Assembly (NCBI GenBank): GCA_964507075.1
Contig: CAZDOL010000001.1
Location: forward strand, 43,201 to 75,200
Length of the DNA stretch: 32,000 bases
Direction: 5' to 3'
Source: an uncultured Gammaproteobacteria bacterium
GTDB taxonomy: Bacteria > Patescibacteriota > Patescibacteriia > UBA2591 > UBA6264
Shown: piece after piece, positions 22,951 to 26,780 of the stretch
Layout of the letters: each line of letters begins with the position of its first letter
Numbering within the stretch: the stretch's first letter is position 1
Notes under the pieces: model-generated
The model's input: only the letters and a program-made list of their open reading frames with translations
The model's database searches: none
Told to the model about the DNA's origin: nothing
Made by a program: the position numbers and the translations under genes

Positions 22951-23223
22951 TTATTTACGTTTTATTTTTTTAATAATTTTTTCATAACTAACCGCATCAT
23001 TAATTTTTAAATATTTAATAAATTTGCGGCGCTCACTAACTTTTTGAACTAAACTGCGTCTGCAGGAAAAATCATGAATATGTTTTTTCAAATGTTCAGT
23101 CAATTCTTTGATTTCCTTACCCAAAAGACCTATTTGAACCTCTGCAGAACCAGTATCTTGAGGATTTTTTTGAAAATCTTTAATAACTTCTTGTTTTTTT
23201 TCTTTTTTCGCTTTATTTGCCAT
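22951..23223 (-). CDS. rpsO: 30S ribosomal protein S15
   Basis: DTGSAEVQIGLL, LTEHLKKHIHDFSCRRSL and RRKFIKYL. Confidence 0.9.
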   Translation of the reverse strand: MANKAKKEKKQEVIKDFQKNPQDTGSAEVQIGLLGKEIKELTEHLKKHIHDFSCRRSLVQKVSERRKFIKYLKINDAVSYEKIIKKIKRK

Positions 23224-23320
23224 AAATCTTATATTTTACCAACAAATTATATCTCCTTTTATCATATATTATCTTAATATAAATGTCAAACTTTACTCTG
23301 AACAAAAGCGTCGTGAAATC

Positions 23321-23349
23321 TTGACAAAACGCCAAATAATCAATAGAAT
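23321..23349 (+). promoter_or_regulatory. Sigma70-like promoter for the recombinase gene (TTGACA-17-TAGAAT)
   Basis: TTGACA at 23321-23326, a 17-nt spacer, and TAGAAT at 23344-23349. Only 9 nt separate the -10 element from the ATG at 23359, implying a very short or absent leader. Confidence 0.45.
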
Positions 23350-23358
23350 AAAAAAAGT

Positions 23359-24288
23359 ATGCCTACTGAAATAAAAAAATTAATCACTGAATTTTTAGAA
23401 TATTTAGAAATTGAAAAAGGTTGCAGTCCTTTAACTATCAGGAATTATGATTTTTATTTGCAAAGATTTGTTAAACAATCTAAAATAAACTCTCCAAAAG
23501 AAATCACCAAAGAAACTGTTAGACAATTCCGCCTTTGGTTATCGCGTTTAAAAAATTATCATCAGGATAATTTATCTTTAGCAACCCGAAACTATCATTT
23601 GATAGCCATTCGTTGTCTTCTTAAATATCTGGCCATTAAAGATATTCCCTCTTTAGCTCCTGAAAAAATTGAACTAGCCAAAACAGGAGAAAGGCAAATA
23701 TCCTTTTTAGAGGGGGATGATTTAGAAAAATTACTTGACGCTCCCCTTCAAGTGAAACAAAAAGAAATTATTACCTATCGCGACAAAGCTATTCTGGAAC
23801 TGCTTTTTTCAACTGGCTTAAGGGTTTCTGAATTAACCAACCTCAAAAAAGAAAACATAAATCTCAAAAAAGATGAATTCAGCATAAAGGGCAAGGGCCA
23901 AAAATGGCGTCTGGTGTTTCTGTCTAACCAAGCCAAATATTGGTTAAAAAAATATTTAGAAAAAAGAACCGACATTGACCCAGCACTTTTTATACGTTAT
24001 GATAGGGCATCAAAAAATAACCAAAAATCACTAGGTATTACTCCTCGTTCTGTCCAAAGATTGGTTCAAAAATATTCTAAAGTTGCCGGCTTAACTCGCA
24101 AAATCAGTGTTCATACTCTTCGGCATAGCTTTGCCACCGACCTATTGTCTGGTGGAGCCAATTTACGAGCAGTTCAAGAATTGTTAGGACATCGAAATAT
24201 AACTACTACTCAAATTTATACTCATGTCACAAATCAACATTTAAGAGAAATATACCAAAATTTTCACGACCAAAAAAGAAAAAAATAA
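23359..24288 (+). CDS. Tyrosine site-specific recombinase, XerC/XerD family
   Basis: N-terminal SAM-like core-binding domain (FLEYLEIEKGCSPLTIRNY) and catalytic region HTLRHSFATDLL...LLGHRNITTTQIYTHV (R-H-R-Y). Confidence 0.85.
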   Translation: MPTEIKKLITEFLEYLEIEKGCSPLTIRNYDFYLQRFVKQSKINSPKEITKETVRQFRLWLSRLKNYHQDNLSLATRNYHLIAIRCLLKYLAIKDIPSLAPEKIELAKTGERQISFLEGDDLEKLLDAPLQVKQKEIITYRDKAILELLFSTGLRVSELTNLKKENINLKKDEFSIKGKGQKWRLVFLSNQAKYWLKKYLEKRTDIDPALFIRYDRASKNNQKSLGITPRSVQRLVQKYSKVAGLTRKISVHTLRHSFATDLLSGGANLRAVQELLGHRNITTTQIYTHVTNQHLREIYQNFHDQKRKK

Positions 24289-24333
24289 CGCTGAAGATTG
24301 AATAATTTGAAAATTAAAGGATTAAGGGATTTG

Positions 24334-24372
24334 ATGTTCCTATGTTCTCATGTTCAAATGTTCTCATGATTC
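24334..24372. repeat. Five tandem 8-bp units ATGTTCNN (last unit degenerate)
   Basis: ATGTTCCT ATGTTCTC ATGTTCAA ATGTTCTC ATGATTC, read directly. It lies immediately upstream of the duplicated tRNA-Arg 5' segment. Confidence 0.6.
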
Positions 24373-24374
24373 AT

Positions 24375-24387
24375 GCCCCTATAGTTC
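24375..24387 (+). repeat. 13-nt duplicate of tRNA-Arg positions 1-13 (GCCCCTATAGTTC)
   Basis: Exact match to 24491-24503, the 5' acceptor strand plus U8 A9 and the 5' D-stem strand of the intact tRNA-Arg. Confidence 0.8.
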
Positions 24388-24490
24388 CCTCCTTCGCTCA
24401 AATTTGCATTTGAGCTTCGGAAGGGCAAGCATCAACATTAAAAGGTTTGCTCGCCCATCGAAGCTTCGATGTAAATCGAAGCGTAGTTGG

Positions 24491-24565
24491 GCCCCTATAG
24501 TTCAACGGATAGAACGAGAGACTTCTAATCTCTAGATAGAGGTTCGATTCCTCTTGGGGGTACCA
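24491..24565 (+). tRNA. tRNA-Arg (anticodon UCU), CCA encoded
   Basis: Manual cloverleaf. Acceptor GCCCCTA/TGGGGGT (two G-U pairs). D arm GTTC-AACGGATA-GAAC. Anticodon arm AGAGA-CTTCTAA-TCTCT. T arm AGAGG-TTCGATT-CCTCT. Discriminator A followed by CCA. Confidence 0.9.
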
Positions 24566-24571
24566 TTTCAT

Positions 24572-24609
24572 GGCGGCTATAGTTCAATGGTAGAACAGCG
24601 GATTGTGGG
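24572..24609 (+). pseudogene. Truncated tRNA-His: 5' half only, ending in the anticodon loop
   Basis: G-1, acceptor strand GCGGCTA, TA, D arm GTTC-AATGGTA-GAAC, A, anticodon stem strand GCGGA, loop TTGTGGG (GUG). No TCCGC strand, no canonical T arm and no TAGCCGC acceptor strand follow in the next ~800 nt. Confidence 0.7.
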
Positions 24610-24629
24610 TTTATCCACAGCACGATGTT

Positions 24630-24658
24630 TTGACATCTATATAAAATTAGGCTATAAT
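24630..24658 (+). promoter_or_regulatory. Perfect consensus sigma70 promoter (TTGACA-17-TATAAT) driving the HNH gene, probably leaderless
   Basis: TTGACA at 24630-24635, an exactly 17-nt spacer, and TATAAT at 24653-24658. Seven nt (AGTAACC) separate the -10 element from the ATG at 24666, so the expected transcription start is about at the A of the ATG. Confidence 0.6.
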
Positions 24659-24665
24659 AGTAACC

Positions 24666-25142
24666 ATGCCTTATGTTAGATGTAAAATCTGTGATAAAAA
24701 ATTCTACACCAAGCCATCGTACTTAAAACTTGGTTGGGGAAAATATTGCTCAATAAAATGTAAACGCATAGCCCAGTTAAAGGGGAAATTTGTAAAATGT
24801 CATACTTGCGGCAAAAAGACATGGAAAGCTCCCAAAGCATTGAAGCATTCAAAAAGCGGGAATTTCTTTTGTTGTAAATCATGTCAAACCATATGGAGGA
24901 ATCAATATTATTCTGGACCAAAACATCCTAATTGGAAAGGCGGAGAACATAGGCAATATAGAAAAATATTGCTTAAAAATGGCAAAACACCAGTTTGTCA
25001 AATCTGTGGACTAAAAGATAAAAGAGTGCTTATAGCACATCATAAAGATAGAAACCGAAAAAATCAGACCATTGAAAATCTTATATGGTTATGTTTAAAC
25101 TGTCATCACCTAGTGCATCATTACAATAAATCTATCCATTAA
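24666..25142 (+). CDS. HNH endonuclease with two N-terminal zinc-ribbon-like repeats
   Basis: CKICDKKF...CSIKC and CHTCGKKT...CCKSC repeats, then the HNH core CQICG...IAHHKDRNRKNQTIENLIWLCLNCHHLVHH. Confidence 0.85.
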   Translation: MPYVRCKICDKKFYTKPSYLKLGWGKYCSIKCKRIAQLKGKFVKCHTCGKKTWKAPKALKHSKSGNFFCCKSCQTIWRNQYYSGPKHPNWKGGEHRQYRKILLKNGKTPVCQICGLKDKRVLIAHHKDRNRKNQTIENLIWLCLNCHHLVHHYNKSIH

Positions 25143-25153
25143 TAATTATTATG

Positions 25154-25228
25154 GCGACCTTGGTGTAGGAGTAGCACAAAAGCCTGTGGAGCTTTCGGCA
25201 GGGGTGCAAATCCCCTAGGTCGCCCCAT
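25154..25228 (+). tRNA. tRNA-His (anticodon GUG) with encoded G-1 and CCA; atypical T-loop
   Basis: G-1 pairs with C73. Acceptor GCGACCT/AGGTCGC. D arm GTGT-AGGAGTA-GCAC. Anticodon arm AAAGC-CTGTGGA-GCTTT. T arm AGGGG-TGCAAAT-CCCCT has G where the near-universal U55 is expected. Confidence 0.85.
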
Positions 25229-25229
25229 A

Positions 25230-25258
25230 AAAACATCTCTTTTTTAGAGGTGTTTTTG
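25230..25258 (+). terminator. Intrinsic terminator after tRNA-His
   Basis: AAAAACATCTC-TTTTTTA-GAGGTGTTTTT, with a T-run after the stem. Confidence 0.6.
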
Positions 25259-25303
25259 TGTATAAAAAATACTTGCCCATGTCGGACCTAGGCAAGACTA
25301 TTA

Positions 25304-25336
25304 AAAAAGTTTGGACACCGAGTGTCCAAACTTTTT
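25304..25336. repeat. REP-like hairpin copy A2 (identical to 2767-2797); likely bidirectional terminator
   Basis: AAAAAGTTTGGACAC-CGA-GTGTCCAAACTTTTT lies between the convergent tRNA-His cluster and the stop of the 25359 gene. Confidence 0.8.
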
Positions 25337-25358
25337 AATTCCCAAACTCTTAATTTTA

Positions 25359-26780
25359 TTAAAAAATAGGGGTTCCTTCAGCGTAAGATTTGATTTCTTC
25401 CAATTTAATTTCTACTACATCTGAAAAACTAAAATTTAATTTTTCTAAAATCTGAGGTGAAGTTACCCATCTCTTTATCTTTTGGTCCAATAAATAAACC
25501 TTCTCTCCTCCCTCTGCTCTGATTAAATAATTTTGAGGCAAAGCCCTGATAATTTCCTGACCAACAGTAACTATTTCATCAAACTTACCATAAGCATCAA
25601 CCATTGCTTGGCTTAACATATGTCTAATAGTACCATTTTGGGAAACCAAATAAACCTTTTCGTCTCCCTCAGCCCGAATAAATTTTACCAAAGGCATTTC
25701 TTGGATAGTATGCCCTAAACTAACAATACCATCCCAAATACCCCCAACACCCTCAAAAACATTCGGAGCATTAAGCCATAAACGAAAACCATTTAAATTA
25801 AGATAAACCTTTTCGTCGTCTTTTTCTTTAATAAACTGAACATCACTATCCTGTAAATCCCCTTCTTCCTCAAAAAAACGAATAATTGGATCGGGCTCAT
25901 ATGGCACAATTGAAGAAATACAAAACACTGAAGATTCGCAATTAACATTAAAGGTTTCTTCTTTCCAAGAATCATTTAAATATTTGGATTCTGCTTGTTC
26001 TAATTTTGTCCAAAGCAAAAAATTATTTCCTGATTTATTGGTTAAATATCCATATTTATAGTCGTCATCTACTCCTTCTGGCTGGTATTTGAATCCATAT
26101 TTATAATTTGTCCTATAATGCAAAGTTGCTGAATCCAAGATATTCTCTAAAGCGTTCCATTGATTCTCTTTTTCCGATTCCCGAATACTAACAATTGGAT
26201 AATGACCAAAATATTTATAATACTTATCTAAAACTTTCTTCATTCTGTTTAAATCTGATGCCCTTTTCTTATCTCTATTTTTGGGTCCATTTTCAGAAAG
26301 ATCTTTTAATTCTGTTCTTAAATATAATTCATCAATCTCTGGAGATAGATTAGGATTGGATGTAGCTAAAAATATCTTAAGACGCATTTTTTTGGTAATA
26401 GTATGGGGTTCAAAGGAACTGCCCCAGGTTAAAGGATATTCTCTAATATCGTCGTCAAAGCTAATAAAAGCTAAAACATGAGTTCCTGCTGGCTGGCTAT
26501 AAACACCCGTAAGAGTCAATGAATAAATATGAGGATTAAAACGAATATCATCTGTCCATAAAACCCCAGAAGAAACAAAACCCTCTTCTTGCTCTTCTAA
26601 AGTTACATTACCTCTTTCCCAATGAATTGTGCTGTAATCCCAATCAATAATTCCAGATGAATTGAAATCATATTTTTTTTCAGCATACTTGATGGGAATC
26701 GGTCCCAAAGCTAAAAGCGCCCGCGCAGGGATTATAGAAATAAAAAAAATGCTTAAAATAATTATCTTAAATCGTCTCAT
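25359..26780 (-). CDS. Secreted hypothetical protein with three C-terminal ~45-aa repeats
   Basis: The start is trimmed to M21 (MRRFKIIILSIFFISIIPARA signal peptide). An internal RDKKRASDLNRMKKVLDKYYKYFGHYP segment resembles the motif that follows the N-terminal helix of pilin-like proteins. No family was recognised. Confidence 0.6.
   Translation of the reverse strand: MRRFKIIILSIFFISIIPARALLALGPIPIKYAEKKYDFNSSGIIDWDYSTIHWERGNVTLEEQEEGFVSSGVLWTDDIRFNPHIYSLTLTGVYSQPAGTHVLAFISFDDDIREYPLTWGSSFEPHTITKKMRLKIFLATSNPNLSPEIDELYLRTELKDLSENGPKNRDKKRASDLNRMKKVLDKYYKYFGHYPIVSIRESEKENQWNALENILDSATLHYRTNYKYGFKYQPEGVDDDYKYGYLTNKSGNNFLLWTKLEQAESKYLNDSWKEETFNVNCESSVFCISSIVPYEPDPIIRFFEEEGDLQDSDVQFIKEKDDEKVYLNLNGFRLWLNAPNVFEGVGGIWDGIVSLGHTIQEMPLVKFIRAEGDEKVYLVSQNGTIRHMLSQAMVDAYGKFDEIVTVGQEIIRALPQNYLIRAEGGEKVYLLDQKIKRWVTSPQILEKLNFSFSDVVEIKLEEIKSYAEGTPIF

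Follow-up and report, generated by a model that had tools for sequence, protein, structure and literature searches.

Homing endonuclease genes usually spare their hosts by hiding in self-splicing introns or inteins or by sitting between genes. The subject of this report is a cassette of ~620 base pairs (bp) located in the histidine transfer RNA (tRNA-His) gene of a Patescibacteria (Candidate Phyla Radiation) bacterium, within a 32,000-nucleotide (nt) stretch of a low-G+C contig (CAZDOL010000001.1, positions 43,201 to 75,200). This whole stretch is referred to as the window, and all positions without a locus label are window positions. It is close to certain that the cassette (~24609-25227), which carries a gene for a zinc-ribbon/HNH protein followed by a complete tRNA-His gene, entered the resident tRNA-His gene directly behind G37 and took the place of its remaining part. 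A literature search returned no description of an HNH/tRNA-His module in these bacteria, nor of a chromosomal destroy-and-replace arrangement.

The closest known analogue is SegB of phage T4, a free-standing GIY-YIG homing endonuclease encoded in the T4 tRNA gene cluster, which recognises the conserved T-psi-C motif of tRNA genes and spreads with neighbouring tRNA genes while tRNA-region markers of the recipient are lost, a process named "intronless homing" (PMC2330249). The cassette likewise holds a free-standing endonuclease gene among tRNA genes. Unlike SegB, it is chromosomal in cellular bacteria, combines an HNH domain with zinc ribbons, is associated with one tRNA (His), leaves a truncated resident gene behind and supplies the replacement, presumably from its own promoter. 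Group I introns provide another comparison, and one is carried by cyanobacterial tRNA-fMet. Such introns, with homing endonuclease genes, occur in the anticodon loops of bacterial tRNAs and keep the tRNA working by splicing (PMC3984707; 10.1101/2020.01.27.920355). The cassette is also an endonuclease-bearing element in the anticodon-loop region with a working tRNA kept; however, it has neither ribozyme nor splicing, and function is restored by a whole spare tRNA gene while the interrupted gene is dead.

Islands and prophages that target tRNA genes use a recombinase and short identical attachment repeats, and restore a chimeric tRNA (usually its 3' part). The cassette resembles these integrative elements in its insertion in a tRNA gene, in the element-borne sequence that keeps the tRNA functional and in the fragment at one end, and differs from them in having no recombinase or repeat, a complete foreign tRNA, a 5' remnant and an endonuclease as cargo. 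Introns with endonuclease genes in the ribosomal RNA (rRNA) genes of the same phylum also place selfish endonuclease genes in essential, conserved RNA genes, and the LAGLIDADG family also occurs in the tRNA-His niche; these introns are removed from the rRNA precursor, whereas the cassette is not an intron and replaces the gene. A further parallel is offered by I-TevI, which represses its own promoter via an operator resembling its homing site (PMC2988022). In the cassette, a sequence like the presumed target (an inverted tRNA-His anticodon-loop region) stands at a fixed distance from, and extends into, the promoter of the nuclease gene; unlike the I-TevI operator, this putative operator has the opposite orientation to the target and is placed 5' of the -35 element.

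The locus consists of the following features:

24491-24565, forward strand: tRNA-Arg(TCT) gene (ARAGORN; Rfam 69.9 bits)
24572-24608, forward strand: 5' remnant of the resident tRNA-His gene, comprising G-1, the 5' strand of the acceptor stem, the D arm, the 5' strand of the anticodon stem and the loop to G37 (37/37 against relatives)
24609-24629, forward strand: cassette left end, with the motif ATCCACAG at 24613-24620; similarity to the cassette of locus L013 starts here
24630-24658, forward strand: sigma-70-type promoter TTGACA-17-TATAAT, predicted to drive a leaderless HNH messenger RNA (mRNA) and tRNA-His (12/12 match)
24666-25142, forward strand: open reading frame (ORF) of 158 amino acids (aa) for a zinc-ribbon/HNH protein, a putative homing endonuclease (Pfam, PHROG, PADLOC and PDB profile matches)
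25153-25227, forward strand: complete tRNA-His(GTG) of the cassette (ARAGORN; Rfam 58.1 bits; G-1 at 25153, G1 to A76 at 25154-25227)
25221-25259, forward strand: right junction CGCCCCA, then the resident terminator hairpin and T-run (alignment with the HNH-less loci L093 and L095)

The same sequence is also present as ASNW01000006.1 (GCA_000405165.1) and on 23 other contigs. Because the remnant/HNH/tRNA-His arrangement thus recurs on 24 contigs from ENA, NCBI and JGI, it is neither a chance pattern nor an assembly artefact.

An earlier note, made from the letters of the window alone, had described most of these features. Its tRNA-His 5' half is real, matching positions 1-38 of a tRNA-His hidden Markov model (HMM) at E=1e-6 (nhmmer) and 37/37 identical to the intact tRNA-His of relatives L097/L105 and L101; its end had been placed at 24609 and was moved to G37 at 24608, base 24609 (G) differing already from the resident T38. 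The partner strands TCCGC and TAGCCGC had been reported missing downstream, and the resident 3' half was not found in the 32-kb window with up to three mismatches allowed. The perfect promoter, with its -10 hexamer 7 nt from the ATG (24666), proved to be the sole 12/12 match within 23000-26000. A complete tRNA-His(GUG) had been placed 11 nt past the ORF, and this distance was recovered from the stop codon to G1 (10 nt to G-1). This tRNA-His has C73 and an encoded CCA, a TGCAAAT T-loop and a D-loop without the usual G18G19 position; as had been claimed, its stems are not those of the resident gene, with every stem different and 59% identity overall. The terminator after it is present as a hairpin and T-run (~25233-25259), but belongs to the resident locus, being common to HNH-less relatives. 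The cassette itself encodes one ORF, with no recombinase and no direct repeat at its ends, and the Rfam matches in 24000-25600 at E<=10 were those of the two tRNAs plus noise, none of them to an intron or ribozyme family.

Relatives with an empty site were found via the neighbouring XerC-type recombinase (XerC 85-95% identical). An intact tRNA-His gene without HNH gene was present at the syntenic junction of xerC and a gene for a 473-476-aa protein in L095/L096, L097/L098 and L099, and this uninterrupted allele, with its TCCGC...TAGCCGC, bears out the proposal of the earlier note that a cassette had entered the resident tRNA-His. In L095, L097 and L099, tRNA-Arg(TCT) lies 11-20 nt 5' of the intact gene; in L093, a resident-type tRNA-His is also intact and HNH-less, 1.8 kb from tRNA-Arg. 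The relatives carry one tRNA-His copy at the site, not two. Most of them keep the order PNPase-NYN-S15-xerC ... 473/476-aa protein-DUF5689-LamG, and in L095 other genes replace the PNPase-NYN block. The site is therefore polymorphic for presence and absence of the cassette, which was found in the window and not in L095, L097, L099 or L093.

Both junctions were read from these alignments. The intact tRNA-His of L097 is GGCGGCTATAGTTCAATGGTAGAACAGCGGATTGTGG|TTCCGCTGACGAGGGTTCAATTCCCTCTAGCCGCCCCA, the first 37 nt of which equal window positions 24572-24608, while the remainder holds the TCCGC and TAGCCGC strands; the left junction is thus exact at G37. The right junction falls within the last 7 nt of the tRNA, where CGCCCCA is common to the 3' ends of the cassette and resident tRNAs. 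Alignment with the HNH-less loci L093 and L095 restarts at CGCCCCAT-AAAAACATCTCTTTTTTAGAGGTGTTT, the window sequence after the tRNA (CGCCCCATAAAAACATCTCTTTTTTAGAGGTGTTTTT...) aligns with the flank 3' of their resident tRNA-His, and the resident flank picks up again at CGCCCCATAAAAAC. Given that the left match ends at G37 and the right flank realigns after the tRNA, resident positions 38 to ~70 were replaced by ~620 bp. A metagenome scan with the resident 5' half gave eight further loci, all of them intact genes (six of eight with intact tRNA-Arg just upstream), and no half-tRNA lacking an endonuclease gene was seen among these eight matches.

The cassette tRNA-His is foreign along its whole length and is not a chimera of host and element. 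Its nearest neighbour is L013, which is also the nearest neighbour of the HNH gene (tRNA-His 87% identical; HNH 71% amino-acid identity). Similarity between the window and L013 is confined to one segment, which begins at ..TTATCCACAG, takes in the promoter and ORF and stops at the 3' end of the tRNA; outside of it the two loci have different tRNA-His remnants, different breakpoints and unrelated downstream flanks. A shared cassette between different remnants and flanks is the pattern expected of two independent insertions of related cassettes. As for co-conversion of flanking sequence, a resident tRNA-His truncated at G37 was found next to a tRNA-His of foreign origin.

The cassette tRNA, with G at position 55 of its T-loop, had been called recoded in the earlier note. 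G in place of T55 (xGCAA) is, however, carried by roughly one in four tRNA-His genes of these genomes (25153-25227, L009, L013, L023, L030, L046, L055, L057, L059, L067, L069, L080, L083-L086, L092, L115 and others). All G55 tRNA-His genes also have AG in the usual G18G19 place of the D-loop, which together form an apparent covarying tertiary pair. Since the variant also occurs in L115, a resident tRNA-His with no HNH gene, this is a natural tRNA-His class of the phylum, and the G55 T-loop with AG D-loop was rejected as a cassette-specific immunity change.

A second lineage shows the same polymorphism and, in addition, a second nuclease family. Locus L010 has a remnant, HNH gene and tRNA-His, while in two relatives, L115 and L117 (flanking protein 85% and 75% identical), the tRNA-His is intact and an HNH gene is missing; L115 shares the upstream terminator flank of L010 and the first 16 nt of the tRNA. 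In L119/L120 (72%), the remnant is shorter and reaches about position 18. Behind it come a leaderless-type consensus promoter (TTGACC-17-TATAAT) whose distance to the ATG is 6 nt, an ORF of 149 aa that contains GFFDGEG and passes the Pfam LAGLIDADG_3 cut-off with 29.8 bits, and the identical tRNA-His that follows the HNH gene of L010. The occurrence of one layout with endonucleases of two unrelated families argues strongly for a homing niche.

The earlier note had treated the cassette as a single case, and on this point it was extended: the interpretation as a homing cassette is supported at this site by every computational check that the note had proposed, and the site belongs to a phylum-wide family. 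Related loci numbered 416 in a scan of one genome per species, with records from Patescibacteria lineages or generic uncultured bacteria; tRNA linkage was counted on the best 80 of the 416 loci, and upstream remnants, promoters and motifs on 84 loci. A tRNA-His(GTG) gene lies downstream on the same strand in 78/80 and starts between -23 and +39 nt from the HNH stop codon in 75/80, and four more homologues from unrelated contexts have the same HNH/tRNA-His layout. At 33/84 loci, the cassette directly follows a tRNA-His 5' remnant, with breakpoints at tRNA positions ~26-45 in the 18 that were mapped and at ~18 in the LAGLIDADG locus L119. At 26 other loci of the 84, the HNH start is preceded at 45-100 nt by the end of a different tRNA, in most cases Arg(TCT). 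The layout of remnant, endonuclease and tRNA recurs with different sequences in many lineages. Tandem HNH paralogues precede one tRNA-His in L056 (2318-3280) and L074 (2005-3019), as if the site had been invaded twice, and these again point to a homing niche.

Other features were observed at these loci. In 19 of them (e.g. L009 3484-3498, L021, L023, L030 and L055), the HNH ORF runs 15 nt into tRNA-His, so that RNase P processing of a co-transcript would strip the stop codon from the nuclease mRNA; removal of the stop codon is a possible built-in limit on nuclease expression. Genes for large serine recombinases lie directly beside the module in L004 (663-2348) and L007 (3495-5123), both HNH/tRNA-His, and in L120 (5626-7263, LAGLIDADG/tRNA-His), which suggests that the tRNA cluster is also an attachment site for integrative elements.

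The tRNA-Arg gene of the window is scarred in a similar manner. The first 13 nt of this gene (GCCCCTATAGTTC, 24376-24388) continue directly from the upstream flank, the same as in L093/L094, and are separated from the complete tRNA-Arg by a 103-nt, strongly folding insert (24389-24491; minimum free energy -40 kcal/mol) that is single copy in the DNA examined; the relatives lack this insert at tRNA-Arg. In L102 and L106, only the 3' end of tRNA-Arg (..TTGGGGGTACCA) is left ~110 nt 5' of the intact tRNA-His, with unrelated sequence before it, and represents another truncated tRNA gene in the tRNA cluster. In L099 (4470-4990), copies of the palindromic repeat ATGTACGAGGTCGAACCTCGTACAT fill the intergenic DNA around the tRNA pair.

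The 158-aa protein has a pair of TRASH-like zinc-ribbon units at its N terminus and an HNH nuclease domain at its C terminus. As the earlier note had proposed, it is related to HNH endonucleases, with a full-length match to the phage family phrog_1271 "HNH endonuclease" (E=2e-15), weak matches to PADLOC "HEase" and a borderline Pfam HNH score (21.0 bits, cut-off 21.4; the TRASH-like zinc ribbons are below cut-off). A PDB profile search gave weak matches to the En domain of a group II intron maturase, the HNH of IscB, and I-HmuI. The Cys, His and Asn residues typical of the HNH motif and the zinc sites are invariant in 20 homologues, and together with these matches place the protein with homing-endonuclease folds. 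The AlphaFold model was mediocre (predicted local distance difference test score 62.8 overall, ~79 in the HNH part), and with it nothing was found below E=0.1 by Foldseek against PDB. The protein has more than 345 homologues of ~157 aa and near-constant length, 55-75% identical, and mean column identity in the family is 57%. The protein also lies within a larger set of ~3,400 representative clusters at E<=1e-10, many of which are 250-590 aa long and have 3-10 repeated zinc-ribbon units before one HNH domain; other tRNA genes are possible genomic partners of these clusters.

Promoter geometry is conserved across the family. The best promoter matches at least 10 of 12 consensus positions in 59/84 loci, and the -10 element lies 6-8 nt before the start codon in 64/84, with a mode of 6 that would put the A of the start codon at +1. 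A Shine-Dalgarno-like core was found in 2/84 loci. Predicted from this geometry, a leaderless HNH mRNA, which the earlier note had suggested for the window, is supported.

Read on the opposite strand, the motif ATCCACAG gives the tRNA-His anticodon loop CTGTGGAT; it occurs once in the window and stands there exactly 9 nt before the -35 element. CCACA[GA]-N9-(-35) is present in 40/84 loci (with 8 nt in two) against 0.04 in shuffles. Strict matches numbered 33 in 675 kb of DNA from the phylum, and HNH genes follow 31 of them, so the motif was rejected as a general promoter element of these genomes. The other two are one sequence, ATCCACAA-N9-TTGACA (L115 2930-2975, identical in L116), ~50 nt downstream of an intact, HNH-less tRNA-His and before a Gp49-family/helix-turn-helix pair resembling a toxin-antitoxin system; it may have been left behind by a cassette since lost, or another selfish element may use this promoter module too. 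From the -35 element to the motif, weak reverse-strand matches to the tRNA-His HMM were obtained in 15 loci, all in one register. The motif can pair into a hairpin with TGTGG of the remnant (TTGTGG where kept), which reaches the anticodon stem in some loci. By analogy with I-TevI, ATCCACAG-N9-(-35) may be a target-mimic operator by which the nuclease represses its own promoter; a relic of fold-back repair is another possible origin.

Taken as a whole, the explanation of the locus as a homing cassette is probable, and nuclease-driven homing is the best-supported mechanism, to which we give a somewhat better than even chance and close to that of the whole. From sequence features we infer cleavage by the HNH protein, a cut in the anticodon loop, immunity of the cassette tRNA and autoregulation. 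The HNH protein would bind and cut HNH-less tRNA-His genes in or near the anticodon arm when such DNA meets a copy bearing the cassette, probably after DNA uptake, and repair would copy the cassette across the break. A left junction inside the tRNA would yield a 5' remnant, while a crossover in the upstream tRNA-Arg, the likely left homology arm, would yield a "clean" insertion. The resident 5' half is left as a dead remnant, and the tRNA-His of the locus is now the cassette copy; its transcription presumably starts at the cassette promoter, together with that of the nuclease mRNA, and RNase P would free it. The cassette tRNA-His, different from the resident in all stems, may escape cutting, and the target-mimic operator may limit the output of the nuclease.

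Several observations weigh against this interpretation. Remnant breakpoints range from ~18 to ~45, and with this spread of ~25 positions no single cut site can be read; reading the cleavage site off the remnant ends was rejected for this reason. Since the YTGTGG loop is of necessity retained in the cassette tRNA, any immunity has to reside in other positions. HNH and tRNA-His identities are weakly correlated across the family (rho 0.09; 1/500 permutations), so that the tRNA has not always been co-transferred with the nuclease; strict family-wide co-divergence of the two was rejected and is clear for the window/L013 pair alone. Among IMG/VR viral contigs, no close HNH relative was found (best 32% identical), and a phage origin of the cassette was rejected on this basis. 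The ratio of nonsynonymous to synonymous substitution rates (dN/dS) of the HNH gene is 0.015-0.1 (0.015-0.05 where set against the neighbouring gyrB), which is purifying selection as strong as on gyrB. In the L080/L083/L085/L086 clade, HNH dS (0.28-0.59) tracks that of the adjacent gyrB (0.20-1.09) with dN/dS as low as in gyrB, indicating vertical inheritance under strong constraint, whereas a purely selfish endonuclease gene is expected to decay after fixation. Nearly all sampled HNH ORFs are intact, in a sample biased towards intact genes because the search used conserved peptides. The low dN/dS fits an endonuclease that needs to stay active, or a protein with an acquired role in its carrier (possibly control of the promoter that now makes the tRNA-His of the cell), and not a decaying parasite.

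The selection data also support a rival explanation, a functional operon, in which a zinc-ribbon/HNH protein with a selected cellular role tied to tRNA-His was spread by ordinary recombination and the nuclease was not the agent of insertion. Possible roles include a regulator that binds the anticodon-like motif, a nuclease for processing or quality control, or a toxin whose antidote is a resistant tRNA. In addition to the constraint equal to that of gyrB and the co-divergence in one clade, intact ORFs of constant length, the tight conservation of the protein, the 15-nt overlap of ORF and tRNA in 19 loci, and the conserved motif and promoter geometry would all suit such an operon. It does not readily accommodate a gene that is present or absent at the same site among very close relatives in two lineages, an unrelated LAGLIDADG gene in the same niche with the same tRNA-His, truncated resident genes abutting the cassette in 33/84 loci, or tandem HNH copies, and the best family matches are to homing or phage HNH endonucleases. 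The operon is therefore considered unlikely, but deserving of some weight.

The remaining alternatives, two of which had been kept open in the earlier note, concern the tRNA sequences themselves. tRNA genes are classic attachment sites, and an integrative element might have used tRNA-His as such a site by means of a Xer-type or other integrase, leaving a recombination scar. A tyrosine recombinase gene (23359-24288) does end 200 nt upstream of the tRNA cluster, and large serine recombinase genes lie beside tRNA-His in L004, L007 and L120, but the same xerC stands next to S15 in all HNH-less relatives, where the site is empty, and the cassette encodes no recombinase in its ~620 bp and has no direct tRNA repeat at its ends. 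The remnant and the intact tRNA are 59% identical, the latter being wholly foreign where a chimera would be produced, and we consider a scar very unlikely. Two tRNA-His-like sequences in tandem on one strand could also reflect decay of a duplicated copy with an unrelated gene landing between them. This is extremely unlikely given that relatives have one copy, an intact gene matched by the remnant at 100% identity, that the intact copy of the window is 59% identical to the remnant, and that the layout recurs with different sequences in many lineages. The break falls at the canonical 37/38 intron position, and some bacterial tRNAs have group I introns in the anticodon loop (10.1101/2020.01.27.920355), so the fragment might belong, as 5' exon or half, to a tRNA-His that is split, trans-assembled or interrupted by an intron. 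Neither an intron or ribozyme match in the Rfam scan nor a 3' partner in the window was found, a complete tRNA-His lies downstream, and breakpoints vary between loci from ~18 to ~45, which leaves this explanation a nearly negligible probability.

The homing cassette would represent a third way for an endonuclease gene to spare its host, in which the element cuts into an essential single-copy RNA gene and carries a spare copy. A broader reading, which we hold tentatively and at slightly less than an even chance, is that Patescibacteria harbour a guild of intronless homing cassettes in which two or more unrelated nuclease families (HNH, LAGLIDADG) are represented, and which destroys the resident tRNA-His and installs a substitute expressed after a leaderless nuclease mRNA from the consensus promoter of the cassette, so that the host supply depends on the element while a target-mimic operator tunes expression. 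The strong purifying selection raises the question of what keeps a "selfish" nuclease intact once fixed, and dependence of the host on the element for tRNA-His, combined with continuing homing, would explain selection of housekeeping strength on the nuclease. If the proposed homing mechanism is right, the small zinc-ribbon/HNH nucleases would be a family with a defined, conserved DNA target, useful for the study of zinc-ribbon specificity, and the cassettes would account for horizontal replacement of tRNA-His and for tRNA fragments in these genomes. They would then constitute a natural "cleave-and-rescue" gene drive in bacteria, acting on one tRNA in hundreds of Patescibacteria species.

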